Source: Bacillota bacterium (GTDB lineage Bacteria; Bacillota; Clostridia; Acetivibrionales; DSM-1351). Taken from it: DNA of 24,000 nucleotides. A program made the translations under genes and the position numbers. The stretch is taken from assembly GCA_023443515.1 (NCBI GenBank), contig JAEZUC010000079.1:23664-47663 (forward strand). The letters run 5' to 3'. Below are positions 1,725 to 18,425 of the stretch, piece by piece (the first letter of the stretch is position 1; the number at the start of each line of letters is the position of its first letter). Under the pieces are notes generated by a model that searched no databases, had not been told where the DNA came from, and saw only the letters and a list, made by a program, of their open reading frames with translations.

Positions 1725-1875
1725 TTGTTCTGAAAATTATTATATAAAATAGTAAATTATTCTATAAAACATTGGTATAGTGATATATAATAAAATAAAC
1801 AATCACAATACACATTTTCGTTGCAATAACTAACGGACTATAAAGGGGCAGCTTAAAATATTAATGGAGGTGTTT

Positions 1876-4164
1876 ATGTTTTTTAAAAGAAAAAAAGGCA
1901 TAAAACCTGGGCAATATAAAACGCTGGTTAACATAATTAATAATAACAACTATAAAAGCCTTTCGGATAATGAACTTCAACAATTAATTAATAATTATAA
2001 AAAACGCTTAGATAATTTTATCATCCGTGACAGTCAACAATTTGTTAATGAATATATGACAGATTGTTTTGCAATAACAAAAGAGATAAGCAGGCGTGTA
2101 TTAAATCTTGAACCATATGATTCGCAACTTCTGACAGGTATTGCATTATACTTAGGAAAAATTGCAGAATTGCCCACAGGAGAGGGAAAAACATTAGCAG
2201 CTGTTTTTCCGGCAGTATTAAACGCACTCTCCGGCAAAGGTGTTCACATTTTTACCTTTAACGATTACCTTGCAAAAAGAGACGCGGAATGGATGAAGGG
2301 GATATATGAATTCTGGGGATTAAAAGCGTCATATATTCAGGAAAATATGGACAGGCCTCAAAGAAGAAGGGCATATTTGGCTGATATAACTTATGTTACG
2401 CCAAAAGAAGCTGGTTTTGATTATCTAAGGGATTCTATAGTCTATGATAAAAATGAAATTGTACATAGGCCATTCAACTCTGTAATTGTTGACGAGGCAG
2501 ACGCAATTCTTATTGATGAAGCCAGGACACCTCTGGTCATAGCAGGAAGTATGGGCTTGCAGCAAAAAATTGACAACCGTCTGGTAGAACTGGTGGGATT
2601 ACTGAGACGGAATATTGATTATGCAATTGATGAGAGCAGCAGAAATGTTTATCTGACCGAAGCCGGCAGTTCTGTAGTTGAAAATTATCTTGACTGTGGG
2701 AACCTGTATAATCCCAAAAATGTAGAAACGCTTACACATATAAATAATATGCTTCATGCTAAAGTCCTTTTAAAACGGGATATTCATTATATTATTAAAG
2801 ATGGGCGTATCGAAATCATAGATGAATTTACAGGAAGGATTGCAGACAGACGAAAGTGGGATTATGGACTTCAGATGGCTCTTGAAGCTGTTGAAGGAAT
2901 AGACTCCATACCAAGTAATAAAATACTTGGAAAAATAACAATTCAGAATTTTATAAGCTTGTATCCGCATATGTCAGGAATGACGGCAACGGCAAAGTCG
3001 TCTGAGGAAGAATTCCTAAGTACATATGAACATGATGTCTATGTTGTCCAGCCAAATAAAAAATGTATTCGTGTTGATTTCGATGATTTTGTTTACACAC
3101 ATAAAGAAGCAAAATACAATGCCATAGTTAATGAGGTTCGCGCTTCGCATAACCAAGGACGGCCTGTATTGATAGGTACTTCAAGCATTAAGGAATCTGA
3201 GATGTTGGCAGGTATGCTGAAACAGCAAGAAATAGTATGTGTGGTATTAAATGCAAAAAACGATGCAGAAGAAGCAAAAATCATTGCGCTGGCGGGAAAA
3301 CTCGGGGCCGTTACTGTGTCTACCAATATGGCAGGACGTGGAGTTGACATAAAACTAGGTGGAGAAAATTGCCCTGAAGATACAGAAAAGGTGTTGGAAT
3401 TGGGTGGACTTTATGTCATCGGAACCAACAGAAACGAATGCGTGAGAATTGACAACCAGTTGAGGGGCAGGGCTGGAAGGCAGGGTGACCCCGGCTCTTC
3501 ACGCTTTTTTATAAGTTTGGAAGATGATTTATTGGTGCAGTTTGGTATAGGAAAGGTTATACCAACCAAATATTATGGCATAAGGCAGGCCGAAAAGGTT
3601 GATGACAGCAAACTTTTAGCATTGATATGCCATATACAGAGAGTAGTCAACGGTCAGAACTTTGAGATAAGAAAAACACTGGGCAAATACTCGTATCTCC
3701 TTGAATGGCAGAGAAGAACATTTTTCAAAAACAGGTTTGAAGTTTTGTCCTGTAATACTCCGGGGATTTTGTCCGTAGAGAAAAAGGAGTTATACAAAGA
3801 ACTGTGCGATAAGTATGGAAAAGAAAGAGTTGATGAAATTCAGAGAAAAGTATCCCTTAATTGCATGGACGAATTCTGGTATGATTTTCTTGAATATTGT
3901 GAAAATATTAAGGAAGGAATAAATCTGGTTTCGGCAGGAAGAAAAGATCCTGTGGACGAGTTTAACAGACTTAGTATCAATAAATTTGAACAGCTGCATG
4001 AGGAAATCAATGAAAAAATATTGAATACCCTCCAAGACATAGATTTTTCCATGGATGACTGCCAGTTGGCAGATAATGGATTTCAAACACCTTCAGCTAC
4101 CTGGACCTATATAATTAACGACAGCATAAAAGTTAAAAATTTTACACTATTCAGCAGATTATAA
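1876..4164 (+). CDS. secA2: SecA-family preprotein translocase ATPase; short (~762 aa) SecA2-like paralog lacking the C-terminal zinc-binding tail
   Basis: Motifs seen: Walker A PTGEGKTLAAV; DEAD-like VDEADAILIDEARTPLVIAG; MTATAKSSEEEF; LNAKN...EA.IIA.AG; VTVSTNMAGRGVDIKLGG; RIDNQLRGRAGRQGDPG. GGAGG at 1866-1870 favours ATG 1876 over ATG 1864. There is no Cys-rich C-terminus. Confidence 0.85.
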   Translation: MFFKRKKGIKPGQYKTLVNIINNNNYKSLSDNELQQLINNYKKRLDNFIIRDSQQFVNEYMTDCFAITKEISRRVLNLEPYDSQLLTGIALYLGKIAELPTGEGKTLAAVFPAVLNALSGKGVHIFTFNDYLAKRDAEWMKGIYEFWGLKASYIQENMDRPQRRRAYLADITYVTPKEAGFDYLRDSIVYDKNEIVHRPFNSVIVDEADAILIDEARTPLVIAGSMGLQQKIDNRLVELVGLLRRNIDYAIDESSRNVYLTEAGSSVVENYLDCGNLYNPKNVETLTHINNMLHAKVLLKRDIHYIIKDGRIEIIDEFTGRIADRRKWDYGLQMALEAVEGIDSIPSNKILGKITIQNFISLYPHMSGMTATAKSSEEEFLSTYEHDVYVVQPNKKCIRVDFDDFVYTHKEAKYNAIVNEVRASHNQGRPVLIGTSSIKESEMLAGMLKQQEIVCVVLNAKNDAEEAKIIALAGKLGAVTVSTNMAGRGVDIKLGGENCPEDTEKVLELGGLYVIGTNRNECVRIDNQLRGRAGRQGDPGSSRFFISLEDDLLVQFGIGKVIPTKYYGIRQAEKVDDSKLLALICHIQRVVNGQNFEIRKTLGKYSYLLEWQRRTFFKNRFEVLSCNTPGILSVEKKELYKELCDKYGKERVDEIQRKVSLNCMDEFWYDFLEYCENIKEGINLVSAGRKDPVDEFNRLSINKFEQLHEEINEKILNTLQDIDFSMDDCQLADNGFQTPSATWTYIINDSIKVKNFTLFSRL

Positions 4165-4256: not shown

Positions 4257-4961
4257 ATGATACGGATTTCCCTTTGCGATGATGAAAACCAAATTACTGG
4301 AACATTAGCCGCCAACCTAAAAGGCATAAGGCCTGATATAGAAGTACTTTCCTATGATAGCGGAGAGAACTTGCTCGAAAGTAAATATCTGTATAACGAT
4401 ATAGTATTACTGGACATTGAGATGAACGGAATAAACGGTATTGAAACGGCCATTGAGCTTCGCAAAGGCGGCTATGAAGGAATGATTATATTTCTAACAT
4501 CTCACAAGGAAATGGTTTTTGATTCTTTTCGGGTCAAGCCGTACAACTATATTGTTAAGCCCATTGATATAAATAAAGTTAACAATATACTCAACAATGC
4601 CATAAATGAAATTATAGACAGGAAAACTACCCATTTCGAAGCCGTGTGCAACAATCGTACTTTCAGAATACAGCTAGAAGACATTTATTACTTTGAGTGT
4701 AACGGTAGAAAAGTTGATATTTATTCAAAAAACGGGACAATTACTATTTTGGGAAAAATGAATCAAATAGAAGCCTCTCTCAGAAATAAGCAGTTTTTCA
4801 GGTGCCATAAGGGTTATCTTGTAAATCTAGAGCACGTTTGCGAATTTTCAAATAATGAGATTATTTTGACCAATAACCAGAAGGTTTTAATCAGCAGACT
4901 AAAAATTAATTTATTCAAGGAGGCTTTTAAGGCGTTTATGAAAGGAAATATAAAATGCTAG
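4257..4961 (+). CDS. LytTR-family (AgrA/ComE/PlnC-like) response regulator
   Basis: N-terminal receiver (ISLCDDE...VLLDIEMNGINGIE...IIFLTSH) and a C-terminal LytTR-type DNA-binding region (IYYFE...RCHKGYLVNL). The stop overlaps the start of the downstream kinase. Confidence 0.88.
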   Translation: MIRISLCDDENQITGTLAANLKGIRPDIEVLSYDSGENLLESKYLYNDIVLLDIEMNGINGIETAIELRKGGYEGMIIFLTSHKEMVFDSFRVKPYNYIVKPIDINKVNNILNNAINEIIDRKTTHFEAVCNNRTFRIQLEDIYYFECNGRKVDIYSKNGTITILGKMNQIEASLRNKQFFRCHKGYLVNLEHVCEFSNNEIILTNNQKVLISRLKINLFKEAFKAFMKGNIKC

Positions 4962-6283
4962 TGATTTTGGCAAACAGCCTAATTGATTTAATTTCAAGTA
5001 TATTTGAAATACTGATTTTTGTTTTTATGATTTCAATATTTTTAGACTTTACCGAAAGAGCCAATAAAAACGTAATACTATATTTTGTTATATACGGATT
5101 GCTTAAAGTTGTCAAAATTATTTTTCCTATTGTATTTTTAGTTGACTTTATCACTTCTGTATTTGTACTGATTTTTGTTTTTATTGCTTTCAAAGGGAAC
5201 ATTGCACACAAATTATTTGCATTTTCTACAGCGGTTTGTCTTAACTATGTTGTTGATATTTTTATTATCTCCTTTACAAACATGGGATTTAATTATAATT
5301 TGTTTTTCAGCACATTATCCGGAGGAGTAAGGGGTATATGGGTTACCATAATCAAAATTATACTGGTTATTCTTGTATACATACTACTGAAGAACTTTGC
5401 CACTACCACAACATTAAAAATAAATATACTTTCATCTGTTCAGACCTTAATTCTCATCATGCTTCCTGCCTTCAGCTTTGCTACAATCACAATTCTTGAC
5501 TGGGGAGTAAGGAATTTTGTAGATGTACCTGTAAATACTTCAGCATTCCTGCTTATAGCATCCTTATGCACAATAATATATAACGTAATAGTAATGATTT
5601 TAATTGATAAGATGATTCTTAATAAAAAATATAAACATCTCAATGAAATGTCAGAAGCTCAGCTTAGAACACAGTTCAATCATTACGAACAGATAATGAG
5701 TAAAAACCAGGAAACCAGGAAGCTAAAACATGATATGAAAAATCATCTTAGATTAATTAGAACCTTGATAGAAAATAATGACATAGATGAAGCAAAGGAG
5801 CTCCTTGACGAGATTGAGGATACTATGCGCGGACTTGACCTTGAAATAAGCAGCGGTAATAGTATCACAGATGCAATATTAAACGAAAAGAACAAGATGG
5901 CACATAATCTGGGAATAAAATTTGAGTTTTCCGGGATATTGCCAAGGGAGAACTTTATAAATCCCTTTGATATCAGTACAATTTTTTCAAATGCTTTGGA
6001 TAATGCTATAGAAGCAGCTGTGAAGTCCGATGACTCTGAGAGGTTTATCAGGGTTTTCACATACATTCAGGGCAAATGCCTGTTTATTTTAATTGAAAAT
6101 TCAGTTGAAAAGGATATTAAAATTACAGGAAAAGAGATTGAGTCTACAAAACAAAACAAGGAACATCACGGCTTTGGCCTCAAAAATATTAATGACAGCG
6201 TGGAAAAGTACGGAGGCGGACTGAGTATTATTTGTGAAAATAAAGTATTCAAACTGGAAATATTACTTAATATAAAAATATAA
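4955..6283 (+). CDS. AgrC-like (HPK10-type) polytopic sensor histidine kinase with GHKL ATPase domain
   Basis: About 6-7 hydrophobic helices in the first ~220 aa. H-box KLKHDMKNHL, N-box FSNALDNAIEA, G-box HGFGLKNI. A 7-nt overlap with the RR gene suggests translational coupling. Confidence 0.85.
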   Translation: MLVILANSLIDLISSIFEILIFVFMISIFLDFTERANKNVILYFVIYGLLKVVKIIFPIVFLVDFITSVFVLIFVFIAFKGNIAHKLFAFSTAVCLNYVVDIFIISFTNMGFNYNLFFSTLSGGVRGIWVTIIKIILVILVYILLKNFATTTTLKINILSSVQTLILIMLPAFSFATITILDWGVRNFVDVPVNTSAFLLIASLCTIIYNVIVMILIDKMILNKKYKHLNEMSEAQLRTQFNHYEQIMSKNQETRKLKHDMKNHLRLIRTLIENNDIDEAKELLDEIEDTMRGLDLEISSGNSITDAILNEKNKMAHNLGIKFEFSGILPRENFINPFDISTIFSNALDNAIEAAVKSDDSERFIRVFTYIQGKCLFILIENSVEKDIKITGKEIESTKQNKEHHGFGLKNINDSVEKYGGGLSIICENKVFKLEILLNIKI

Positions 6284-6289
6284 AACATG

Positions 6290-6351
6290 CATTTTGTGAC
6301 ATTATAGAGACATGTTATGTAAAAAATATTGAATATAACTGTAAATATAAT
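6290..6351 (+). promoter_or_regulatory. Putative LytTR-dependent promoter of the pheromone gene: two 9-bp direct repeats 21 bp apart, plus a -10 box
   Basis: CATTTTGTG (6290-6298) and CATGTTATG (6311-6319) match at 7/9 with a 21-bp period. TATAAT is at 6346-6351, and the -35 (AAAATA at 6323-6328) is poor, as expected for an activator-dependent promoter. Confidence 0.4.
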
Positions 6352-6399
6352 AAACTGTATTTGGTTGAAGTTATGACATTGCCAAATACAGTTTTTTTT
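6352..6399 (+). terminator. Rho-independent terminator/attenuator between the kinase gene and the peptide gene
   Basis: Perfect 13-bp inverted repeat AAACTGTATTTGG (6352-6364) / CCAAATACAGTTT (6382-6394) with a 17-nt loop, followed by a T-run through 6399. It abuts the AGGAGG of the next gene. Confidence 0.6.
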
Positions 6400-6412
6400 A
6401 AGGAGGATTTTT

Positions 6413-6568
6413 ATGAGTAAGAAAAACGTTTGTATGGATATTAAGGCAGATCAATTTGTAGATTTAAATAATGAAGAGGCTATGCAGATAGATGGTGGGA
6501 TTGATTCGCCAAGGCAATGCGTTAATACTATTATTATAGGTATAATTAAGATTATAAATTATTTTTAA
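6413..6568 (+). CDS. Double-glycine-leader peptide precursor (51 aa); candidate secreted peptide pheromone or small class II bacteriocin
   Basis: Not in the ORF track (too short). AGGAGG at 6401-6406 lies 6 nt before ATG 6413. Translation: MSKKNVCMDIKADQFVDLNNEEAMQIDGG|IDSPRQCVNTIIIGIIKIINYF. The leader fits the GG-leader pattern (L-x-x-E-E-x-x-x-I-x-GG). The predicted mature peptide of 22 aa starts at nt 6500. Confidence 0.75.
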   Translation: MSKKNVCMDIKADQFVDLNNEEAMQIDGGIDSPRQCVNTIIIGIIKIINYF

Positions 6569-6596
6569 AGGCTATCAATTTTTGTAAGAATAGAAG

Positions 6597-6872
6597 GTGG
6601 AATTAATTGTAAGTTTGTCTTTTTTAAATAGCGAACCGGATTGTATGGATAAAGCCCGTACTTCGTTTATTTTGGGTATAGTTGATACCGTGGCTTGGCT
6701 ATTGCCTATTATAGGGATTCCGGTTTCAATTGTAGGACTGATATTAGGGATACTTGGTATAAAATCAACTAAAAGATGGATGGCAGTTGTAGGTATTATG
6801 CTTTCTAGTATTTTTCTTGTTGCGGCAATAATCAACGTAATAATAGGAGCATTAAACCAACTTGGTAAATAA
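6597..6872 (+). CDS. Small two-TM membrane protein (DUF4190-like pattern); candidate immunity/accessory protein
   Basis: Two hydrophobic helices (FILGIVDTVAWLLPIIGIPVSIVGLILGILGI and WMAVVGIMLSSIFLVAAIINVIIGAL). The start is ambiguous: GTG 6597 sits too close to GAAGG, and TTG 6615 or ATG 6645 are alternatives. Confidence 0.6.
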   Translation: MELIVSLSFLNSEPDCMDKARTSFILGIVDTVAWLLPIIGIPVSIVGLILGILGIKSTKRWMAVVGIMLSSIFLVAAIINVIIGALNQLGK

Positions 6873-6902
6873 GGTGTTTTATAAGCTCAAAGGAGAATTT
6901 AA

Positions 6903-7301
6903 ATGGCACTATCAGCAGTAGAAAAGGACTATCGATTGAGAAATGTCCTTACTTTAAGAAAAAAAATGACAAGCCGAGAAGTCATATTGGAGATTTTGAA
7001 GTTAAAAAAATTTCTTAAAGACAACGGGCTAAAAAAGAATGGATTCATAACAACGGTAACATTTTCAATAGAGATGCAAGACGGAGTACCTTTAATAGAT
7101 ATGGAAATACTTGTTCCGTTACCAAAAAGAGTAACCATAACGAATGAATATATTTTTAAACCTATTTTTCATGTGGTTAATGCGGTATGTATTTCAAAAG
7201 AAAGTGATAAGGAAACAAGCAGAATACATAATTTATTGTGTTGGAATATCTACGACAAAATAATGGGAAGCAAACAGCAAAAGGATTTTCTTCTAGCTTG
7301 A
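6903..7301 (+). CDS. Truncated/degenerate paralog of the GyrI-like (SbmC-fold-like) protein at 10714-11184
   Basis: AGGAG at 6891-6895. It aligns with the 156-aa paralog through ...EYIFKPIFHVVNAV, then diverges. It has an internal deletion and stops right after a shared KDFL motif, so the final beta-strands (MVIDVYIGV) are missing. It may be a decaying duplicate. Confidence 0.6.
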   Translation: MALSAVEKDYRLRNVLTLRKKMTSREVILEILKLKKFLKDNGLKKNGFITTVTFSIEMQDGVPLIDMEILVPLPKRVTITNEYIFKPIFHVVNAVCISKESDKETSRIHNLLCWNIYDKIMGSKQQKDFLLA

Positions 7302-7493: not shown

Positions 7494-7521
7494 TTTACAA
7501 ATTATGATATAAATGTATAAT
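7494..7521 (+). promoter_or_regulatory. Putative sigmaA promoter of the hydrolase-HK-RR operon
   Basis: TTTACA (7494-7499), 16 bp spacer, TATAAT (7516-7521). It lies ~37 bp upstream of the TTG start at 7558. Confidence 0.5.
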
Positions 7522-7557
7522 ATATTTAGATTTTAATATTTTTAAGGTGATGCTATA

Positions 7558-8532
7558 TTGAATAAATTTATATCCGAACAAATAGACAGATTATCTCTCC
7601 GACAACTACATAAAAGAAAAAGTTTCGTTTCACATTTTATAGCACCAAACATGCAACCCGTAAAATCAGGCGAGTTTTCTTCATATTTTGATACTCCGTC
7701 CATCCCGAAAATAAAATTACAGGAGGAAAAGAATTCATATTATACTACAGGAACATTTTCATATGACAGTCAGATAAGAAATAACAACAAAAGTAATGAA
7801 AAAGTTTTTGGATACTATCACAGAAATTCAAACGATGAGGATTCAACCAATGTAATTCTTGTTCATGGATGGAGAATGGATGATTACAAGAACATTGACA
7901 GTATTTATTTAAAAAGCTTTTTGGATTCAGGATATAATGTTTATCACTTTATAATGCCGTATCATTTTCAGAGGAACTCAAATGAATCCACATATAATGG
8001 GGAACTGTTTGTTACCTCTAACATTGATAGGACACTATTATCAGTAAAACAGGCTGTATCTGATTTAAGGGCATTGGTTAAATGGCTTAAATCAAACACA
8101 CAAGGTAAAGTTATACTAATAGGAGTAAGTCTTGGAGGCTTTTTGACAAATCTGACAAGTGCTGTAGAGAGGGATATTGATATACTGATATCCGTATTTT
8201 ATGCAAATAGTCTGGCAAACGCTGTCTGGAATACAATACCCGGAAAGTACATAAAGAACGATTTTATTAAAAGTTCATTTTCATATGAACAATTATTGAA
8301 CTATTGGGTCGTTATCACCCCCAGCTTATACCAGCCCGCTATTCCTAAAAACAATATATTACTGTTAAGTGCTGCTTATGACCAATACATAAGCTTGGAA
8401 GATTCCAACGAATTATGGTCAAAATGGGGAAAACCTCAAAGGCATATTTACAATTGCGGACACTCAGGCATTGTACTTTTGAGAAATATAATAAGAAAGG
8501 ATTCTTTAGAGTTTATTAATAGCAAACTATAG
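7558..8532 (+). CDS. Alpha/beta-fold serine hydrolase (unknown substrate)
   Basis: Oxyanion region ILVHGW; nucleophile elbow GVSLGG; candidate acid in LLLSAAYDQY; candidate His in NCGHSG. TTG start with AAGGTGA at 7544-7550. Confidence 0.75.
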   Translation: MNKFISEQIDRLSLRQLHKRKSFVSHFIAPNMQPVKSGEFSSYFDTPSIPKIKLQEEKNSYYTTGTFSYDSQIRNNNKSNEKVFGYYHRNSNDEDSTNVILVHGWRMDDYKNIDSIYLKSFLDSGYNVYHFIMPYHFQRNSNESTYNGELFVTSNIDRTLLSVKQAVSDLRALVKWLKSNTQGKVILIGVSLGGFLTNLTSAVERDIDILISVFYANSLANAVWNTIPGKYIKNDFIKSSFSYEQLLNYWVVITPSLYQPAIPKNNILLLSAAYDQYISLEDSNELWSKWGKPQRHIYNCGHSGIVLLRNIIRKDSLEFINSKL

Positions 8533-8547
8533 GTTGGTGGATTATAT

Positions 8548-9945
8548 ATGTTGGTTTTATTTATTGCATTATGGGTAATAGCAGGTATACTCATAAGAAC
8601 TGATCCCCATAATCGGGCCACAAGGTGGGGGAGTGCCCTTGCTTTTTTTTCAGGTTTTGGAGGTCTGGGAATTTTTCTAAGAGAATATTCTTTCACGCTC
8701 TCGGACACTAATACTAAATTTATAATTTATTCGGCAACATCGTTCATGTTCACATTGTCTACCCAAATAGCTCCGTATATTGTTTTAATATATAGTATTA
8801 TATATACAGGAACATTAAATAATTTTAAATTTATTTCTAAATATTGCCACGTCATATTTTTTATTCCGGTAATAATAATGTATTTGATTTACCCGTCTAT
8901 ACCGGATTATAGACCATCATTTTTAATTCTTAGCCTATGGGTTGTACCCTATGTACTTTTTGCAAACTACCTGTTGATTTATTCATATAAAGCTGAGAAA
9001 AATGCACGTAAAAAGCAGCAAAGATTGCTTACTTGCATATTAATTACGCCTACAACCCTGTTTGCTATTACGGCTAATTATATTTTAAGAGCATTCCGGA
9101 TTGAGAGTATATGGAGATATAATGCGATTACAATATCGGTCGCTTTCATAATATTCGTATATGCAAGCTTCAGGTATGGAGTTATGGGGGTTAGAGTTAA
9201 ATTTGAAAAATACCGTTTGGACAGTACTATTAAGGCTATAACCTCAGGAACATCAATTATGAATCATAGTATAAAGAATGAGATTATAAAAATAGGAATG
9301 TGTACAAATACGATTAAATCCAAACTTAAAAATCAAAATATCAATATCCCGGATATTGACGAAAATATTGGATTTATTCTTGATTCTAGTGATTACCTTA
9401 CAAAGATGGTTAAGCATATTCAGAAGCATATTCAAGAGATTACCTTGAATGAGCAGGTTAATAATGTTAAGGATATATTTACAAACTCTATAAACATGGT
9501 AATTCCATTTATAAAAAATAAAGAAATCATACTGGAAAACAATTTTCACAATGACATTTTTATAAAATGTGATAGCCTTCATATTCAGGAAGTGTTTCAT
9601 AATGTATTAAAAAATGCCATAGAAGCGGTGGAAGAGGCAGGTAAACTCAAGATAGATGCTGTTTCAAATAAATCAACATTTATTATTGCTATAAGTGACA
9701 CTGGATGCGGAATATCAAAAGAAAATCTTCCTTATGTATTTGATCCGTTTTTTTCCACTAAACGAACCAGTAATAATTTTGGACTGGGGCTATCATATTG
9801 TGTTAACGTTATGAACTTACATGGTGGTAAATTGGAAGTAATCAGCGAAAAAAATGTGGGAACAACGATACAAATTATTTTTCATAAAAGTAGAGTATCC
9901 GGTTTGCTTGATAAGCAAATCAAAAGGAGTTTGGTCAATGGATAA
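8548..9945 (+). CDS. Polytopic (about 6-7 TM) sensor histidine kinase, HisKA/HATPase_c type, with no obvious extracytoplasmic domain
   Basis: Hydrophobic N-terminal ~210 aa. H-box IMNHSIKNEI, N-box NVLKNAIEAV, DTGCGI, FDPFFSTK, GLGLSYC. It starts 15 nt after the hydrolase stop. Confidence 0.85.
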   Translation: MLVLFIALWVIAGILIRTDPHNRATRWGSALAFFSGFGGLGIFLREYSFTLSDTNTKFIIYSATSFMFTLSTQIAPYIVLIYSIIYTGTLNNFKFISKYCHVIFFIPVIIMYLIYPSIPDYRPSFLILSLWVVPYVLFANYLLIYSYKAEKNARKKQQRLLTCILITPTTLFAITANYILRAFRIESIWRYNAITISVAFIIFVYASFRYGVMGVRVKFEKYRLDSTIKAITSGTSIMNHSIKNEIIKIGMCTNTIKSKLKNQNINIPDIDENIGFILDSSDYLTKMVKHIQKHIQEITLNEQVNNVKDIFTNSINMVIPFIKNKEIILENNFHNDIFIKCDSLHIQEVFHNVLKNAIEAVEEAGKLKIDAVSNKSTFIIAISDTGCGISKENLPYVFDPFFSTKRTSNNFGLGLSYCVNVMNLHGGKLEVISEKNVGTTIQIIFHKSRVSGLLDKQIKRSLVNG

Positions 9946-10573
9946 AATACAGGTAATGATAGTTGAGGATGATCCTGCATGGATTAAAATATTAAATTCT
10001 TTTCTTTCGCAGGAGGAGGATATATTTGTTAAGGCTTCAGCAAACAGTAAAGACGAAGCTGTACGGCTGGCGATAGATATCAAAATAGATGTAATAATTA
10101 TGGACATTAATTTGTCTGAAAACCTTAAGGATGGGGTTGTTGCAGCACTTGAAATAAAGGAATTTTCCGATTCCAAAATAATCATGTTAACATCGTATAA
10201 TGACGATGAACTAATCAAAGATTCCTTTGAAGTTGGAGCTGTAGATTATCTTCTAAAAGAGGATTATTTGGATTTGCCAAACACAATAAGAAAAACATAC
10301 AACAATCGCTCGTCAATACAGGTAATTCTTAATGACTATGCAAGACTTAAAAAAGATGAAAGGTTAAGGGAATTGACAACAGCAGAAAAGGAAGTATTTG
10401 AACTTATAGAACAAGGACTTTCCCAATCACAAATTGCTACAAAATTATCAAAGACAAACAACACGTTGCGTACACAGGTCAAGAATATACTAAAAAAACT
10501 TGGAGCTAAAAATAGTAAGGAAGCTGTAAAAAAAATTAAATACAAGGATATTTTCCACAAATATAAACTATAA
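9938..10573 (+). CDS. NarL/LuxR-family response regulator (REC + LuxR-type HTH)
   Basis: The start MDKIQVMIVEDDP is preceded by AAAAGGAG and overlaps the kinase stop by 8 nt. Phosphoacceptor context VIIMDINL. C-terminal HTH LTTAEKEVFELIEQGLSQSQIATKLSKTNNTLRTQVKNILKKLG. The 9854 start in the ORF track is an over-extension. Confidence 0.88.
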   Translation: MDKIQVMIVEDDPAWIKILNSFLSQEEDIFVKASANSKDEAVRLAIDIKIDVIIMDINLSENLKDGVVAALEIKEFSDSKIIMLTSYNDDELIKDSFEVGAVDYLLKEDYLDLPNTIRKTYNNRSSIQVILNDYARLKKDERLRELTTAEKEVFELIEQGLSQSQIATKLSKTNNTLRTQVKNILKKLGAKNSKEAVKKIKYKDIFHKYKL

Positions 10574-10576
10574 AAA

Positions 10577-10597
10577 GGGGTTATAAAATATAACCCC
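10577..10597. terminator. Hairpin after the RR gene (weak or bidirectional terminator)
   Basis: GGGGTTATA (10577-10585) pairs with TATAACCCC (10589-10597) around a 3-nt loop. There is an A-run upstream but no T-run downstream on the + strand. Confidence 0.35.
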
Positions 10598-10713
10598 TAA
10601 CTCTCAGAATAGTGGTATGAAAAATAACTGTAGTAGGAAAAAAGATATTAATATATAATACACGTAGACATTAATTTACAAATAATAATCAATTAGGGGA
10701 AAATGTAAAATAC

Positions 10714-11184
10714 ATGATACAATCAGGAAAAGAATTTAAACTAGAAAACGTTTTATCTCTAAGAAAAAAAATGACCCAGGAAGAAATAAAAAATGAAATG
10801 GGTAAAATAGGTAAGTTTTTACAGGATAATGGAATAAAAAAAGCCGGACCGATTGTTACCGTAACTTTTGATATTGAAGAAAATTGTGGGCAAGCTCTTA
10901 TGGATATGGAACTCCTTGTTCCAATAGATAAGAAGTTTGATTTTTCAGCAGAATATATATTTAAGCCATTTTTTTACATATTTGATGCTGTATATGCAAG
11001 GCATGAAGGTAATCCTGCAACATTACAAAATACATATAATGAGATACTTGCATATATACAACAGAATAAATTACAACAGATAACGGCAGGTTATAATGTT
11101 CAGGTTAAAGATTTTTTGCCAGGAATGACAGATGATGAGATGGTAATTGATGTTTACATAGGTGTAAGTCGCAATGTACTGTAA
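10714..11184 (+). CDS. Stand-alone GyrI-like / SbmC-like small-molecule-binding-fold protein (156 aa); candidate immunity or peptide-binding factor
   Basis: The length and secondary-structure-like pattern track E. coli SbmC (157 aa) segment by segment. Examples: beta1 EFKLENVLSLRK, helix EMGKIGKFLQDNGIKKAGPIVTVTFD, MDMELLVPI, second repeat FDAVYARHEGNPATLQNTYNEILAYIQQN and MVIDVYIGV. This fold assignment was made by eye, not by HMM. Confidence 0.55.
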   Translation: MIQSGKEFKLENVLSLRKKMTQEEIKNEMGKIGKFLQDNGIKKAGPIVTVTFDIEENCGQALMDMELLVPIDKKFDFSAEYIFKPFFYIFDAVYARHEGNPATLQNTYNEILAYIQQNKLQQITAGYNVQVKDFLPGMTDDEMVIDVYIGVSRNVL

Positions 11185-11318
11185 TTACCTGCTGTAAGCC
11201 ATGGGACAGTAGTTAATATAAACTATGAATGTAAAAACTTTATTATTGAAGTTTATGCGCAGAATGGAGAGAAGAGGATACATTTGTAGAAAAATTAGAT
11301 AAAAGTGAGGTAGAAATT

Positions 11319-11555
11319 ATGACATATGCTATGAGTTTAAACAATGTTGGTTTTGCTGAGTTGACACAGGATGAAATGATGTGTGTTGATGGAGGAAACC
11401 TTTTTGGTGATGTTTGCAAAGTTGTTACTTGTGCTACTGTAAGTGCGGTAATTGGCGCTGTAGTTTCTCCATATGCTACACCAGCAGGAGGATATATAGC
11501 AGGAGTAGTATCATATGAGATAATATCCCAGGCGTGGGATAAAGCTTTCAAATAG
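11319..11555 (+). CDS. Class II (GG-leader) bacteriocin precursor, peptide 1 of a putative two-peptide pair
   Basis: GAGG RBS upstream of ATG 11319. The leader MTYAMSLNNVGFAELTQDEMMCVDGG (GG codons at 11391-11396) is followed by a 52-aa hydrophobic core, NLFGDVCKVVTCATVSAVIGAVVSPYATPAGGYIAGVVSYEIISQAWDKAFK. The core has two Cys and small-xxx-small motifs. Confidence 0.8.
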   Translation: MTYAMSLNNVGFAELTQDEMMCVDGGNLFGDVCKVVTCATVSAVIGAVVSPYATPAGGYIAGVVSYEIISQAWDKAFK

Positions 11556-11572: not shown

Positions 11573-11791
11573 ATGGGAGACTTCATTGAATTAAATTATG
11601 AAGAAATTCAAGCTATAGAAGCTGGCGGATTATTGTCTGCGGTTTGTGGAGCAGCAGCAGGTGCCATTGTTGGATTGTATGTTGGTGGTACCGCAGCAGC
11701 AATAAGTGGTGATTCAAAAAATATTGTCCAGTCTGTAATTGCGGGTGCATCAACAGGATTATGGGTGGGGTTGGGCTGCCCTATTCCGTAG
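11573..11791 (+). CDS. Class II (GG-leader) bacteriocin precursor, peptide 2 of a putative two-peptide pair
   Basis: GGAGG at 11559-11563 favours ATG 11573 over GTG 11564. The leader MGDFIELNYEEIQAIEAGG (GG codons at 11624-11629) is followed by a 53-aa Gly/Ala-rich core with GxxxG motifs (GAAAG, GAIVG, GLYVG, GLWVG) and Cys near both ends (positions 6 and 50). Confidence 0.8.
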   Translation: MGDFIELNYEEIQAIEAGGLLSAVCGAAAGAIVGLYVGGTAAAISGDSKNIVQSVIAGASTGLWVGLGCPIP

Positions 11792-11804: not shown

Positions 11805-11855
11805 GAACCAGATATGCGGATTAAAATTATTCTGCATATTTGGTTCTGGATTTTT
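11805..11855 (+). terminator. Rho-independent terminator after the bacteriocin genes
   Basis: GAACCAGATATGCGGA (11805-11820) pairs with TCTGCATATTTGGTTC (11831-11846), with two G-U positions, followed by TGGATTTTT. Confidence 0.7.
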
Positions 11856-11947
11856 ACTGGTACTGTATTAATTACAGGCACTGAACGCATTAGCAAGAAT
11901 TAATATATATAATAAATATAAATAAAATGTCTAGGGAGAATTTTATT

Positions 11948-12163
11948 ATGAGTATTAAGAATAAGTTATTTGTAAAAAAGATATTTAAAAAATTCATACC
12001 AATGTGTATTGCTATATTAGGATTATATCTTTTAGATATATATTATTTTAGACGGGATGAATTCAGGATCAGTTATGTAATAATTATAGTAATAACTTGT
12101 TTTGCTGTTGTGACCATATCAAGTATTGTAAATACAAAAAAAGATAATAATGGAGTTAGCTAA
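11948..12163 (+). CDS. Small two-TM membrane protein; candidate bacteriocin immunity/accessory protein
   Basis: AGGGAGA at 11933-11939 favours ATG 11948 (MSIKNKLF...). Two hydrophobic helices (FIPMCIAILGLYLLDIYYF and ISYVIIIVITCFAVVTISSIV). TAATG overlap with the ABC transporter start. Confidence 0.6.
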   Translation: MSIKNKLFVKKIFKKFIPMCIAILGLYLLDIYYFRRDEFRISYVIIIVITCFAVVTISSIVNTKKDNNGVS

Positions 12164-14361
12164 TGCAAACCCTATTCAAACATTTCTACTGTGTCAAACA
12201 ACATGACATAACAGATTGCGGAGCAGCTTGTCTGGCTACTATCAGCAAGCAGTACGGTTTTAAAACTTCAATAACAAAAATAAGAGAGATTGCAGGAACA
12301 GACAAACAAGGTACAAATGCATATGGAGTGATAAAGGCAGCTGAGAGTCTTGGTTTCACAGCCAAGGGAGTAAAGGGAAATCAGGAGGCCTTTTTTTCTG
12401 AGTTTCCTTTGCCATGCATAGCACATGTTGTCGTCGAAGGTACATTGCTTCACTATGTGGTTATACATAAGATAACAAAAAAGCAGGTTATCGTTGCTGA
12501 CCCCGGAAAGGGTATAGTCAAGTATGTTCCGGAGGAATTCTTTAAAATCTGGACTGGTGTACTTATATTGATGGTTCCTAATGTTACTTTTAGCAAGGGT
12601 AATAATACAAAGGGCCTTTTTTCCCGTTTCTCTAATTTGCTGATGCCTCAGAAGAAGCTACTTGTAAATATATTTTTTACATCTCTCATATACACTATTT
12701 TAGGTATTTTGGGATCTTTTTATTTTAAATTCCTTTTGGATGACATTTTGCAGTACAATCTGGAAAAGACCTTGCATGTTATATCCATAGGCATTATTCT
12801 GCTCTACCTTTTCCAGACTCTATTGGGAGCATTTCGTTCTCACATGGTTCTGTACTTGTCACAAAAAATTGATATACCTCTTATACTGGGGTACTATCAG
12901 CATGTTCTGGGACTTCCAATGAATTTTTTCGGAACAAGAAAGGTTGGAGAAATCGTATCCCGTTTTATGGATGCCTCAAAGGTAAGAGATGCCATATCAG
13001 GTGCAACGCTTACCATAATGATAGATACCCTGATGGCTGTGGCAGGAGCTGTTATTCTATACATGCAGAATTCTACATTGTTTATAGTTGCGGTAGTAAT
13101 AGCGACTATATATGGCATTATTGTTTTTGCATTTAATAAGCCAATCAAAAAAGTAAATCAAGAACAAATGGAAGAGAATGCACAGCTTACCTCCTACCTT
13201 GTAGAATCACTGAATGGAATTGAAACAGTTAAAACCTTCAACGCCGAGGAGGAAGCATCCCTTAAAACCGAAACAAGGTTCGTAAAGCTACTTCGCTCGA
13301 TATTCAAAGGCGGTGTAATTAATAATTTTCGTTCATCAATTACATCCTTCACTGCATTGGCGGGAGGAACAGTCATATTGTGGGTGGGTGCATGGAATGT
13401 AATAAAAGGAAACATGACAGTAGGTCAATTGCTTGCATTTAATGCTCTGCTGGGATACTTTCTGGAACCTATCAAAAACCTCATCAATCTCCAACCAATG
13501 ATACAAACAGCAGTAGTAGCATCAGACAGACTAGGTGAAATATTTGACCTGGAATTGGAAAAGAGTGAAAAAGAGAACGAAAAGATTAAACCCCTTGATT
13601 TAAAAGGTGACATAACCTTTAAAAATGTAGATTTCAGGTATGGAACACGTTCCCTTGTACTAAAAAATATTAATATTACCATAAAGCAGGGCGAAAAAAT
13701 TGCATTGGTAGGGGAAAGCGGGTCGGGTAAAACCACTCTTGTTAAGCTTTTATTGAACCTGTATACCTGGGAAAAAGGCGAAATAGCAATAAAAGACTAT
13801 AACATAAAGGATATATCCTTTGAGTCCCTGAGAGAAAAACTTGCATACATATCCCAGGATATATTCATGTTCAGCGGAACAATACGGGAAAATCTAACCC
13901 TTGGTGACAAAAATATTAGTATGGAAGAAATTATCGAGGCTTGTAAAATGGCACAGGCACATGAATTTATAAACAAGCTTCCATTGCGGTATGAGACTTA
14001 TTTGGAGGAAAACGGTGCAAATTTGTCTGGAGGACAAAAACAAAGGCTTGCTATAGCCAGAGCAATTTTGAAAAAACCCGACATATTTATAATGGACGAG
14101 GCAACCAGTAATCTTGATTCAATTTCAGAGAAGGCCATAGAGAAAACACTGGAAACTGTTTGCAGCGGAGTAACAACGATTATAATAGCACACAGACTAA
14201 GCACTATAAAACGATGTGACAGGATTTTTGTAATGGAAGACGGCAGTATTATGGAACACGGTAGCCATCAGGAGCTTATGGCACTTGGAGGAAAGTATTT
14301 TGAGTTATGGAAGGAGCAATTAACTGAAAAAGAGGAACAAACCATAGGAGGGAAGGTTTAA
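12163..14361 (+). CDS. Peptidase-C39-containing ABC transporter (PCAT; bacteriocin/pheromone maturation and export, ComA/LagD/CvaB type)
   Basis: N-terminal C39 domain with an intact catalytic Cys (QHDITDCGAACLATISKQYG; Cys codon at 12217-12219), plus HYVVIH and VADPGKG. Six-helix TMD. Walker A GESGSGKTT, signature LSGGQKQR, Walker B IFIMDEATS. Confidence 0.93.
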   Translation: MQTLFKHFYCVKQHDITDCGAACLATISKQYGFKTSITKIREIAGTDKQGTNAYGVIKAAESLGFTAKGVKGNQEAFFSEFPLPCIAHVVVEGTLLHYVVIHKITKKQVIVADPGKGIVKYVPEEFFKIWTGVLILMVPNVTFSKGNNTKGLFSRFSNLLMPQKKLLVNIFFTSLIYTILGILGSFYFKFLLDDILQYNLEKTLHVISIGIILLYLFQTLLGAFRSHMVLYLSQKIDIPLILGYYQHVLGLPMNFFGTRKVGEIVSRFMDASKVRDAISGATLTIMIDTLMAVAGAVILYMQNSTLFIVAVVIATIYGIIVFAFNKPIKKVNQEQMEENAQLTSYLVESLNGIETVKTFNAEEEASLKTETRFVKLLRSIFKGGVINNFRSSITSFTALAGGTVILWVGAWNVIKGNMTVGQLLAFNALLGYFLEPIKNLINLQPMIQTAVVASDRLGEIFDLELEKSEKENEKIKPLDLKGDITFKNVDFRYGTRSLVLKNINITIKQGEKIALVGESGSGKTTLVKLLLNLYTWEKGEIAIKDYNIKDISFESLREKLAYISQDIFMFSGTIRENLTLGDKNISMEEIIEACKMAQAHEFINKLPLRYETYLEENGANLSGGQKQRLAIARAILKKPDIFIMDEATSNLDSISEKAIEKTLETVCSGVTTIIIAHRLSTIKRCDRIFVMEDGSIMEHGSHQELMALGGKYFELWKEQLTEKEEQTIGGKV

Positions 14362-14362
14362 A

Positions 14363-16240
14363 ATGAAGGAAATTTTAGTTGACATAAATGAACTTACGGA
14401 CAGCCGTGAAATGTATCATACAAAACCTCACCCATTTGTATGGATATTTACATATATTTTACTGGGGTTGGTTATAGTAGCTGTAACATGGGCAGCATTT
14501 GGAAAAAAGGAAATAGTAGTAAAGGCCTCCGGCCAGGTACGGCCTGAATCCGGAATAAGTACTGTCAGGAATATTGTTGAAGGGGAGCTGAAAAGTACTA
14601 ATTGTAGACAGGGAATGTCAGTAATGGCGGGAGAAATTTTATACATAATCAAACATGACAATCTTCTGGTGGAAAGGGAGTCGGCGGAAGTAAAGCTTAA
14701 AGAGTTGGAAAAAGAGTTGGAAAACCTTCAAATATATAGAAAATGCATTTCGTCAGAAGAAAACAATTTTGATCCTGCAAAGGAGCCTGTATATTATGAA
14801 AAGGTTAGAAAGCTTTTGATGGATATAAAATTTTCGCAAACTGATACGGCCTATAAAACTACAAGGCTTAGTGAAGAAAAGCTTCTGAACAGTACACAAC
14901 TGAGCAAAAATCTTAAAGAGATAGAATTCTTAAAAAAGTATATAAAATCCTTGGATAACAATAGAAATTATTTAAATTCAGGAAATGAACTGGAAAAGCA
15001 GTACAAACAGAAATATGATAAGTATCTTATAGCAAAAACAGAAATACAAAGAAAATATGACCAACAAGCTAATGAAATAAAGAGTAACAGCCCTGAAGCC
15101 ATGAAACAGTCACTGGAGGAGGAAAAATCCCAGTTAAGGGCATATGAGACACTGAAAAAGAGCATCGGCGAAGCAAAAAATAATTTTCAGTCCGGGGATA
15201 GGTATTCATATCTTTATACGGAATATGAAAATAGATTTAACTTTCTGAAAAATACATACGAGGAGAAAAAACGATTATACGAGGCATACCTTTCATTGAG
15301 CGGAATAGCCATTACAAAATCCGAGCTGGAGGATGCACGAGTGCAAATGCAGAATGCGCAAGGAGAATATACATCCTATAAAAGCAAGTTTATGTCTGAA
15401 TTGGAAAATAATATAAATAATATACAAATCAGCATAAAAGAAAAAGAAAGTAAGGTTTCCGGTACACAGGACAAACAGGGGTTTCTTAATTTAAATGAAA
15501 AGGACAGAAAAAACAGCTTGAAAGCACTGTATTTGCAGGAGAGAAATGATGCAGCCCAAGCAATAGACAATTTAACGGATACGGTGGGAACGCTGAAACA
15601 AAAAAATGTCCTTTCAGATGCAGAACTAAAAACCATAACCGAAGCAGACGGTCAAAATGAAGACTCCTTGAACTACTCACTGGTAGAAAGAACAAAGGTT
15701 CAGGAAGTTGTTGTCACTGATGAAAAGATTAAAGCAGTAACAGATAGTATTACAGGAGTTAGAGAAAATATTAAAAAACTGGAACTGAGTATAAACAATG
15801 CCATTGTAAAGGCCAGTGTAAACGGAACCGTTAACATAATCGCGGAAATGTACCCCGGGGATTTGATGCCGGCAGGAGCTGAAATATTAACGATAATCCC
15901 TAACACCAATTCAGCTTTTAAAATGCAGATGACTGTCAGCAATAAAGACATAGGTGAAATAAATACAGGGGATACGGTTAAATATAGCTTTGCAGCCCTA
16001 CCTTACAGGGAATACGGACAGGTAGCAGGAAAAATAACAAGTATATCAAAGGATGCAGTCAATAACTCAAGCGGTCAAAGCTATTATGTCGTCGAAGCCA
16101 CCGTTCCCGTAACAAAACTGGTCAGCAATTCGGGGAGACAGGGAGAAATAAAGGCAGGAATGATATGTGAAGCAAATGTAATAACGAAGCAAAAGAGCTT
16201 TTTACGCTATTTTCTTGAAAAAATAAATTTGCTTGATTAA
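14363..16240 (+). CDS. HlyD-family membrane fusion/accessory protein with an unusually long coiled-coil region (625 aa)
   Basis: N-terminal anchor FVWIFTYILLGLVIVAVTWAAF. A lipoyl-like half (VKASGQVRPES...). About 350 aa of heptad-rich, K/E/Q/L-rich sequence. C-terminal beta-barrel region (VKASVNGTV...AGMICEANVITKQKSFLRYFLEKI). It starts 1 nt after the ABC transporter stop. Confidence 0.85.
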   Translation: MKEILVDINELTDSREMYHTKPHPFVWIFTYILLGLVIVAVTWAAFGKKEIVVKASGQVRPESGISTVRNIVEGELKSTNCRQGMSVMAGEILYIIKHDNLLVERESAEVKLKELEKELENLQIYRKCISSEENNFDPAKEPVYYEKVRKLLMDIKFSQTDTAYKTTRLSEEKLLNSTQLSKNLKEIEFLKKYIKSLDNNRNYLNSGNELEKQYKQKYDKYLIAKTEIQRKYDQQANEIKSNSPEAMKQSLEEEKSQLRAYETLKKSIGEAKNNFQSGDRYSYLYTEYENRFNFLKNTYEEKKRLYEAYLSLSGIAITKSELEDARVQMQNAQGEYTSYKSKFMSELENNINNIQISIKEKESKVSGTQDKQGFLNLNEKDRKNSLKALYLQERNDAAQAIDNLTDTVGTLKQKNVLSDAELKTITEADGQNEDSLNYSLVERTKVQEVVVTDEKIKAVTDSITGVRENIKKLELSINNAIVKASVNGTVNIIAEMYPGDLMPAGAEILTIIPNTNSAFKMQMTVSNKDIGEINTGDTVKYSFAALPYREYGQVAGKITSISKDAVNNSSGQSYYVVEATVPVTKLVSNSGRQGEIKAGMICEANVITKQKSFLRYFLEKINLLD

Positions 16241-17511: not shown

Positions 17512-18159
17512 TTATTCTTTAATGATTATGCCCAACAGCTTTGACAAGGAGAGGGCTTGAAATTCATTGACTATGGCTCCCTTTAGTTCAGGCCCCTTGA
17601 TAAGCAGACCTTCCATTTTACAGGAAGTAAAATCAATGCCTTTTAGCATGGTTCCTGTAAATTCTACTGATACCAGAGTACATTGTTCAAATTCCACATC
17701 CTTTAGCTGAGCTTCCCATATGTAGCTGTTAGAAAGGTTTGAATTCTCAATGCGACTCCGGGTGATATATGAGTTTGTTAAATTTGAATACTGCATATTG
17801 CAGGAGCTGACAGATATATCACTGAGTCTTGTGTGAGAAAGTATGATGCCGGTAAGATTACAGTTGATAAATTCAGTGTTTCTGAATACCGCATCACTGA
17901 AATCCATATTTGAAATATCACAATCCCTGAATATAACATTGTCAAACACAAAGTTCTGCACATCACATTTATTGATACTGCATTTTTCAAGAATACATTT
18001 GCTAAATTCTACAGAAATGGAAGAAATGTCATTCAGACGGCAGTTTTTAAAGTGGTAGTTTTCAATATCATAACCCGATGAGGTTAAGTTCATAACTACT
18101 TCTTTCATATTTTCAGATTCTAAGAGGCTATCAGGTATTTTTGGTTTTTGTAGTTTCAT
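17512..18159 (-). CDS. Pentapeptide-repeat protein (Qnr/MfpA/McbG-like fold)
   Basis: Tandem A(D/N)LXX-type pentapeptides through most of the protein (e.g. FRDCDISNMDFSDAVFRNTEFINCNLTGIILSHTRLSDISVSSCNMQYSNLTNSYI). GGAGA lies 7 nt upstream of the ATG at 18159, so the 18201 start is an over-extension. It is convergent with the TolC-like gene across a 10-bp gap. Confidence 0.85.
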   Translation of the reverse strand: MKLQKPKIPDSLLESENMKEVVMNLTSSGYDIENYHFKNCRLNDISSISVEFSKCILEKCSINKCDVQNFVFDNVIFRDCDISNMDFSDAVFRNTEFINCNLTGIILSHTRLSDISVSSCNMQYSNLTNSYITRSRIENSNLSNSYIWEAQLKDVEFEQCTLVSVEFTGTMLKGIDFTSCKMEGLLIKGPELKGAIVNEFQALSLSKLLGIIIKE

Positions 18160-18425
18160 TGTTAAATCTCCATTGAGGTACTTTACAAAAAAGTATAGCA
18201 TCCGATAAAAATTTATTCAACATAAGCTGAAATCTTTACTAAAGGTTTGGTCTATCACGTTTCAAAACTGTTAATTTACTAACAAAGTATTGAAATAGCA
18301 ACTAAAAAGAGGTAAAATTACTTTGGTTATTTGAATGGAAATTTGGATATTATACATATTGCAATCATTTCCTAAATTTTGACTCATCTTTAAATAAATA
18401 AAAATATATACAGGAGCGTGAAGTT

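Follow-up and report, generated by a model that had tools for sequence, protein, structure and literature searches.

The window analysed here, i.e. 24,000 nt of contig JAEZUC010000079.1 from a Bacillota bacterium, to which all coordinates refer, contains a bacteriocin locus headed by a gene for a stand-alone GyrI-like protein (10714-11184). Two genes for peptides with double-glycine (GG) leaders follow on the same strand and, further downstream, genes for a small transmembrane (TM) protein, a peptidase-containing ABC transporter (PCAT), an HlyD-type accessory protein and a TolC-like protein (Table 1).

The GyrI-like gene and the two peptide genes form one transcription unit, since the 135-nt gap before the first peptide gene holds no terminator and folds like its shuffled versions (z -1.0), and a strong intrinsic terminator follows the second (minimum free energy -35.5 kcal/mol, z -5.0; 0 of 200 shuffles fold equally well). 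An earlier note on this DNA had placed the gene first in the bacteriocin unit with no terminator before the peptides, in agreement with these results. The hairpin at the upstream edge of the unit lacks a U-run on the + strand and is a putative terminator.

Peptide 1 matches Pfam Bacteriocin_IIc with 32.1 bits, above the cut-off of 27.1, and peptide 2 contains five GxxxG motifs. A second unit begins with the gene of the small 2-TM protein, a candidate for the conventional immunity factor, whose stop codon overlaps the start codon of the PCAT gene; similar small TM open reading frames (ORFs) precede the PCAT in other loci as well. The PCAT closely resembles C. thermocellum PCAT1 (4ry2), a model transporter of structural work, against which it scored 919 bits. 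As regards the PCAT1 substrate CtA, searches with the peptides against PDB sequences returned nothing, and loci with a PCAT around 61% identical contained no recognisable CtA-like peptide.

Table 1. Genes and sequence elements of the bacteriocin locus (window coordinates)
Feature	Position	Strand	Remarks
GG-leader pheromone-like peptide and 2-TM protein, 5' of the decayed paralog	6413..6568; 6597..6872	+	
Decayed GyrI-like paralog, pheromone module	6903..7301	+	46% identical over 119 aa, E 2e-34
GC-rich hairpin, 10 bp	10576..10598	+	just 3' of the LuxR-type response-regulator gene
Promoter-like region of the GyrI-like gene	10624..10674	+	ATAACTGTA box and 28-nt element
GyrI-like / DUF5085-like stand-alone protein	10714..11184	+	ATG start, 156 aa, cytosolic
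Gap between GyrI-like gene and peptide 1 gene	11185..11318	+	no terminator; possible internal -10-like element
GG-leader peptide 1	11319..11555	+	26-aa leader ending in GG, 52-aa hydrophobic core
GG-leader peptide 2	11573..11791	+	leader MGDFIELNYEEIQAIEAGG; core with GxxxGxxxGxxxG glycine zipper
Intrinsic terminator closing the GyrI-like/peptide unit	11805..11855	+	stem of ~20 bp, then UUUUU
Small 2-TM protein, candidate conventional immunity factor	11927..12163	+	two predicted TM segments
PCAT1-like peptidase-containing ABC transporter	12163..14361	+	Pfam C39, ABC_membrane and ABC_tran
HlyD/LcnD-type accessory (membrane fusion) protein	14363..16240	+	Pfam HlyD_3; NCBIfam type_I_hlyD and bacteriocin_acc below cut-off
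TolC-like (outer-membrane-factor fold) secreted protein, 406 aa	16281..17501	+	AlphaFold2 and Foldseek; synteny

Fold and family of the GyrI-like protein

No TM segment or signal peptide was predicted for the product of 10714-11184, which is a GyrI-like protein, soluble and cytoplasmic, and probably belongs to the DUF5085 branch. DUF5085 (PF16895) was its top Pfam match, with 29.5 bits (E 1.2e-6) just below the cut-off of 30 and an alignment spanning profile positions 13-127 of 141, and an identical database protein (P0001) is annotated with PF16895.11 in a precomputed list. The Pfam GyrI-like family (PF06445), to which the earlier note had pointed, reached 18.6 bits (E 2e-3), i.e. less than its gathering threshold of 26, and Cass2 likewise remained under threshold (17.2 bits), with no match in a scan of NCBIfam. 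Among 46 relatives, DUF5085 was matched at E <= 0.01 by 37 (best E 5.9e-8), GyrI-like by 22 and Cass2 by nine.

The AlphaFold2 model, built with 46 homologs, has a predicted local distance difference test score (pLDDT) of 91.6 and a predicted template-modelling score of 0.84. Its secondary structure order according to DSSP, E-H-E-E / E-H-E-E, is that of a duplicated beta-alpha-beta-beta pattern, with two tandem modules in one domain that fills all 156 aa. All 30 Foldseek matches in PDB at E <= 0.001 were GyrI-like domains, the best being the C-domain of EcmrR (E 1e-7, template-modelling score 0.78-0.79); CTR107, CtaZ, STM3175, lin2189, BmrR, BrlR and SbmC were among the others. Judged by the model, the protein belongs to the GyrI-like superfamily with its duplicated SHS2 fold, as had been proposed in the earlier note. 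The special likeness to SbmC that the note had drawn holds for the fold, but not for the closeness of the relationship: SbmC (1jyh) ranked 20th among the structural matches (E 9e-5, template-modelling score 0.64, 11% identity), and was rejected as the nearest relative because others are closer both in sequence and in structure. At the sequence level, neither phmmer nor the family profile found anything significant among PDB sequences, with SbmC undetected at E <= 10.

Members of the family bear database names such as 'AraC family transcriptional regulator' or 'effector-binding domain protein', which derive from structural resemblance. A Pfam scan found no DNA-binding domain in the window protein, as the note had stated, and the identity as an AraC-type regulator was therefore dropped. 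The gene is under purifying selection (ratio of non-synonymous to synonymous substitution rates 0.08-0.25 against four homologs), and R17, D64, E66, K84 and Y127 are invariant polar residues across the family, in which conserved Tyr/His are also present.

While a word-seeded search yielded 94 clusters and a profile search 242, an exhaustive hidden Markov model search recovered 708 representatives (clusters at 50% identity) at E <= 1e-3, 460 at E <= 1e-10 and 128 at E <= 1e-30. Of the 150 representatives listed, almost all have 150-160 aa, and the five longest contain no informative domain fusions. All family members seen were stand-alone proteins.

Conservation and divergence of the cassette

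We surveyed one genome per species, which gave 57 loci, 55 of them with enough downstream sequence, from Ruminiclostridium, Paenibacillus, Herbivorax, Alkaliphilus, Tepidibacter, Clostridium, Ruminococcus, Lachnospiraceae, Vulcanibacillus and others. An ORF for a GG-leader peptide starts within 450 nt 3' of the GyrI-like gene and on the same strand in 37 of the 55 loci, around 33 of which were bona fide after inspection, compared to a call rate of 7.4% in 847 control windows (binomial p ~1e-23). A PCAT with 58-90% identity to that of the window lies no more than 10 kb away in 33/57 loci, and more than 25 loci share the same cassette order, i.e. the GyrI-like gene, one to eight GG peptides, small TM proteins, and PCAT with HlyD. 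The co-occurrence with GG-leader peptides and PCATs that the earlier note had proposed to survey is thus a solid, conserved synteny, and the GyrI-like gene is a core component of PCAT1-type bacteriocin cassettes, with a single copy in most related loci. Across loci the first peptide has a conserved leader (MTxAMxLNNxxFxELTxxEMxxVDGG), and zipper-like motifs were found in 24 of 33 cores, these comprising the first downstream peptide of 31 loci and both window peptides.

The reverse survey, with the PCAT as query, covered 54 metagenomic loci. Of the 17 loci in which the PCAT was at least 64% identical and the upstream flank measured 3 kb or more, 13 had a GyrI-like gene, and none was found with PCATs of around 57-61% identity.

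Upstream of the GyrI-like gene the neighbour varies: LytTR-kinase pairs (some with AgrB), a LuxR-type regulator, a divergent PCAT, a transposase or integrase, or a metabolic gene. In three Ruminococcus loci (L034, L041 and L042, ~9000-10000) the gene comes after an Agr-type module consisting of a LytTR regulator, a kinase and AgrB; the gap there could fit an AgrD-like peptide, and the downstream bacteriocins are still of the GG-leader, PCAT-exported type. A distant homolog (153 aa, 28% identity; best Pfam match DUF5085, 22 bits) is encoded on the R. albus 7 plasmid pRUMAL03 (L115, NC_014826.1, 5751-15113), between LytTR-GHKL genes and two genes for ribosomally made, post-translationally modified peptides (RiPPs) of the huazacin family, accompanied by a radical-SAM enzyme, an ABC transporter and a CPBP protease. 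Therefore, the association reaches a different class of antimicrobial peptides.

About 12 of the 55 loci are orphans with neither GG peptide nor PCAT in 10 kb, as in the R. papyrosolvens group, where the gene lies among cellulosome (dockerin) genes. Such copies far from bacteriocin genes would suit a binder or detoxifier of small molecules, of the multidrug (CTR107/SAV2435), sequestering (CtaZ) or hydrolase (lin2189) type, whose link to bacteriocins would be indirect, as would the invariant acidic pair D64/E66, the conserved Tyr/His and the ligands of the nearest solved structures, which are antibiotics or small aromatic or cationic compounds. Hitch-hiking, however, poorly explains the tight synteny in the same direction across Ruminiclostridium, Paenibacillus, Ruminococcus, Lachnospiraceae, Alkaliphilus and others, and Pfam scans of the window ORFs found no genes for the biosynthesis of small-molecule antibiotics, which makes this explanation very unlikely.

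Pairwise identities over 24 loci were compared by Spearman's rho. The identity of the GyrI-like protein followed that of the PCAT (rho 0.56), was weakly related to that of the first-peptide leader (rho 0.23) and did not co-vary with that of the first-peptide core (rho 0.08). Near-identical GyrI-like proteins even accompany unrelated cores, as in the window and locus L004 (81% vs 29% identity) or in loci L050 and L056 (86% vs 28%), with L014 and L022 as another such pair among GyrI-like proteins of 81-86% identity. The GyrI-like gene is part of the conserved cassette frame, and the variable middle consists of the peptides and TM proteins. Since co-variation with the peptide cores is absent, cognate, sequence-specific immunity is unlikely and a generic role in the cassette fits better.

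That the protein is a classical cognate immunity protein, directed against the exported mature bacteriocin of the locus, is highly improbable also on other grounds, i.e. it is cytosolic while the peptides are predicted to be membrane-active from outside, its gene lies upstream and not downstream of the structural genes, and nearly every cassette, including that of the window, encodes small TM proteins of the class II immunity type. What speaks for this role is the shared unit with the bacteriocin genes and the self-protection that GyrI-like proteins such as SbmC and AlbA confer. CtaZ is a further case of such self-protection (PMC9545259).

The correlation with the PCAT may point instead to an export escort, i.e. 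a targeting chaperone that would recognise the GG leader or the peptidase domain of the PCAT and deliver the precursors. The conserved leader would be in line with this, as would the weak tracking of leaders and not of cores, the presence of the gene only with the more similar PCATs in the reverse survey, and locus L015, which pairs it with a pheromone GG peptide and a PCAT alone. However, PCAT1 binds and cleaves its substrate in vitro without a helper, specificity lying in the contact between the leader and the peptidase (PEP) domain (PMC6959990). Moreover, the pRUMAL03 homolog goes with huazacin RiPPs and a different ABC exporter in the absence of a PCAT, orphan copies occur, and the correlation may reflect merely the shared descent of the cassette frame. 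An escort function is therefore quite unlikely.

Regulatory elements, neighbouring genes and history of the locus

The 28-nt element in the promoter-like region of the GyrI-like gene (10647-10674) has a 75% identical copy (7509-7536; repeat family D9) upstream of the hydrolase-kinase-regulator operon. Exact copies of the ATAACTGTA box occur in the window only at 6335-6343 and 10624-10632, i.e. in the promoter gaps of the pheromone gene and the GyrI-like gene, and of the eight copies with one mismatch, four are in further promoter gaps of the locus (4218, 6387, 7483 and 7509). With ten matches against 9.9 expected the box is not enriched in the window, six of the ten being located in promoter gaps of the locus. 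It resembles the reverse complement of LytTR-type boxes, and as its placement alone is suggestive, it should be regarded as a weak lead. An alignment of nine loci revealed a conserved TGATATAAT-like motif in the gap before peptide 1, with a small palindrome 5' of it. Because this -10-like element and the palindrome are conserved, the peptide genes may also own a promoter.

The same conserved elements would also fit if the protein were a regulatory part, i.e. a stand-alone effector-binding domain that senses a peptide or small molecule and modulates the quorum-sensing two-component system or the bacteriocin promoter in trans. GyrI-like domains are typically the effector-binding domains of MerR and AraC regulators, EcmrR and BmrR being among the top structural matches here, and the gene directly follows LytTR-histidine kinase, Agr-type (AgrB) or LuxR-type regulators in around 15 of 42 loci, and likewise on pRUMAL03. 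Its conservation independent of the cargo and the invariant polar residues, which fit a defined ligand, agree with such a role too. Nevertheless, we consider it unlikely: the protein has no DNA-binding domain, nor is one fused to it in the five longest of the 150 representatives listed, the upstream neighbour is variable while the downstream GG peptide is conserved, and DUF5085 has no known regulatory member.

The pheromone module upstream contains a paralog (6903-7301), 3.8 kb before the intact copy, which the earlier note had taken as a recurrence of the association. It exists, but past residue ~97 the similarity shifts to another frame with a stop codon, and it was therefore rejected as a second working copy and read as a decayed, frameshifted remnant. 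In locus L015 the order is LytTR regulator, kinase, GG pheromone, 2-TM protein, intact GyrI-like gene and then directly the PCAT. Since the intact gene stands there immediately before the PCAT, a comparison of window positions 4257-7301 with L015:7353-12953 suggests an L015-type cassette in which a second module has come to lie between GyrI-like gene and PCAT, i.e. hydrolase, kinase, LuxR regulator, GyrI-like gene, two peptides and TM protein. This insertion appears to have left the upstream GyrI-like copy frameshifted.

The first genes of this module (7558-10573, +), encoding an alpha/beta hydrolase, a multi-TM histidine kinase and a LuxR-type response regulator, stay together as one conserved block in L004 (79-92% identity). 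A weak match links the hydrolase to the NCBIfam model 'RcgR family putative quorum lactone hydrolase' (101 bits, under the cut-off of 182), and a hydrolase heading a two-component operon beside bacteriocin genes is unusual. Directly 5' of the LytTR regulator gene lies a gene for a short SecA-like protein (766 aa; 1864-4164, +). L015 has a 56% identical homolog, likewise 5' of the LytTR regulator, and L037 a 38% identical one around 5 kb 3' of the GyrI-like gene, and the protein may act as an accessory SecA tied to the locus.

At the other end, the TolC-like protein had no match in Pfam or NCBIfam scans. Its AlphaFold2 model (pLDDT 89.4) consists nearly entirely of long helices, and outer-membrane factors, CmeC, OprM, TolC and CusC among them, made up the entire top 44 of the Foldseek matches in PDB (best E 8e-6, template-modelling score ~0.5). 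The gene is kept 3' of HlyD in the closest loci, with homologs of 71-80% identity in Ruminiclostridium papyrosolvens, R. josui and Clostridium sp. BNL1100, organisms considered to be monoderm. It is unexpected to find a trio of PCAT, HlyD and TolC-like protein in a Gram-positive.

The cassette is flanked by a gene for a pentapeptide-repeat protein (17512-18201, -), a homolog of which (52% identity) is encoded around 9 kb 3' of the GyrI-like gene in L015. Gyrase is shielded from microcin B17 by pentapeptide-repeat proteins (McbG, Qnr) as well as by SbmC/GyrI, and the presence of both folds at one bacteriocin locus may be a coincidence. Thereafter follow a phosphoglycerate kinase-triosephosphate isomerase fusion (646 aa; 18426-20366, +) and iPGM. 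The bacteriocin cassette of L038 also adjoins an iPGM gene, and the glycolytic cluster may be a recurrent insertion site.

A possible cytoplasmic role and comparison with known systems

Producers of glycine-zipper bacteriocins must keep hydrophobic precursors from harming their own membrane from the inside, and inside protection for GG-leader peptides has so far been attributed to the leader alone. We tentatively favour the explanation that the GyrI-like protein binds the hydrophobic bacteriocin precursors in the cytoplasm before export, in a generic and not a cognate manner, with the TM proteins protecting from outside. This role is proposed by analogy, because the characterised DUF5085 proteins TipE and ExiAB sequester glycine-zipper toxins, and it is from them that we infer the binding partner, the binding site and a protective effect. 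Sequestering proteins of self-resistance, namely CtaZ, STM3175 and SbmC, are also among the structural neighbours of the window protein. The protein would be made together with, and 5' of, the GG-leader peptides, and hydrophobic Gly/Ala-rich (glycine-zipper-like) segments of the precursors would be bound in the cleft between its two SHS2 helices. Precursors held in this way would stay soluble and off the inner face of the membrane until cleavage and export by the PCAT, and the exported peptide would then be handled by the small TM proteins encoded beside the transporter.

The suggestion of the earlier note that the protein serves in peptide binding or non-canonical immunity is strengthened, because DUF5085 includes proven cytoplasmic immunity proteins and the synteny with GG peptides is conserved across tens of species, while the part of it that would amount to classical cognate immunity is not. 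Taken together, its interpretation was partly supported.

Several observations weigh against precursor binding. The divergence of the protein does not follow the peptide cores, and near-identical proteins go with unrelated ones; the gene of L015 stands beside only a pheromone-like GG peptide and a PCAT; the first peptides of L046 and L053 are not Gly-rich; and L073 and L074 contain a PCAT1-like transporter and Gly-rich GG peptides, with no GyrI-like gene found in the sequence covered. In addition, the invariant R17, D64, E66, K84 and Y127 could mark a polar ligand site and not a hydrophobic groove, and orphan loci are not expected for cytoplasmic neutralisers of the ExiAB type.

It is tempting to go further and regard the protein as a generic, sequence-tolerant cytoplasmic holdase or neutraliser for PCAT1-type cargo, and its gene as a conserved left-border anchor for module swaps, a view that we put forward as possible, if doubtful. 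If true, it would be the first soluble partner of the well-studied PCAT1 transporter class, and 'compartment-specific immunity' would extend from type VII secretion system (T7SS) toxins to ribosomal class II bacteriocins. With the GyrI-like gene as the left border and the PCAT as the right border, the peptide/immunity module would be swapped between strains by homology, and the decayed copy at 6903-7301 would be the scar of such a swap. With a conserved binder in the cytoplasm, producers would gain a second layer of protection, in parallel to the findings on T7SS toxins of 2023-2025, and such a factor could improve the heterologous yield of toxic bacteriocins and help, as a genomic marker, to mine Clostridia for peptide cassettes. 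What would be new here is that a toxin-sequestering type of DUF5085/GyrI-like protein has been recruited to PCAT bacteriocin cassettes.

Regarding the systems from which the analogy is drawn, TipE of S. gallolyticus neutralises the glycine-zipper pore-forming T7SS toxin TelE by direct binding, which was reported to be specific (PMC10434224). According to a 2026 preprint, TipE is part of a cytosolic complex that precedes secretion, and the TelE segment to which it binds is called into question there. The soluble dimer of ExiA and ExiB in S. aureus ST398 sequesters the glycine zipper of the T7SS toxin EsxX, which lies in a hydrophobic groove that the two SHS2 helices of ExiB enclose. In this two-compartment logic, protection from outside falls to the membrane proteins ExiCD, and the co-occurrence of exiAB with the toxin gene is consistent with protection before secretion (PMC12744356). 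The ExiAB deposit is an EMDB map only (PMC12744356), and neither TipE nor ExiAB has a PDB entry, the presumed kinship with the window protein being drawn from the Pfam profile and from descriptions. By these, all are soluble proteins of around 150 aa with a duplicated SHS2 (GyrI-like) fold, encoded beside membrane-active glycine-zipper peptides or toxins, with which they co-occur in producers, and separate membrane proteins act as immunity from outside, proven there and candidate here. In contrast, export in the window relies on PCAT, HlyD and TolC-like protein and not on a T7SS, Pfam scans of the window ORFs having found no T7SS, LXG, WXG100 or Lap genes. The gene also lies upstream of the toxin genes and not downstream, it is usually present as a single copy and not as an adjacent pair forming a heterodimer, and it shows no co-variation with its cargo, whereas TipE is reported to be specific.

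SbmC resembles the window protein as a stand-alone protein of around 155 aa with a duplicated SHS2 fold and no DNA-binding domain. It protects against the peptide-derived toxin microcin B17 and acts on DNA gyrase, whereas nothing at the window locus points to gyrase, and the window peptides are hydrophobic and of membrane type. CtaZ of Ruminiclostridium cellulolyticum (PDB 7zhe/7zhd) binds closthioamide and provides self-resistance to the producer by sequestration (PMC9545259). It is likewise a stand-alone GyrI-like protein from the same genus, encoded with antibiotic genes, and shows the highest identity among the PDB structural matches (20%, template-modelling score 0.76-0.78). Its ligand, however, is a small polythioamide, its gene context is another, and a relationship by sequence profile was not detected. 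The effector domains of MerR and AraC regulators (EcmrR, BmrR, Rob and BrlR) are the best structural matches, but the window protein lacks their DNA-binding domain and its family is stand-alone. With class II immunity proteins, i.e. small TM proteins, four-helix bundles of the EntA type and CPBP/Abi proteases, it shares the place in a bacteriocin locus and a presumably protective function; it differs from them as a soluble alpha/beta protein that is not cargo-specific and whose gene lies 5' of the peptides, also in around 33 related loci.

For PCAT1 itself, the coupling of cleavage and export prevents the release of toxic cargo in the cytosol, and no soluble partner has been described (PMC6959990). 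A further parallel is the pneumococcal rtg PCAT locus, where rtgX, present in 21% of strains, encodes a 'GyrI-like hypothetical protein' without an assigned function (PMC7018657). Streptococcus proteins were absent among the named family matches, and rtgX is likened by description only, as a GyrI-like protein in a PCAT/GG-peptide locus. Regardless, this sole trace that we found in the literature is an independent hint that the association between GyrI-like proteins and PCATs recurs.

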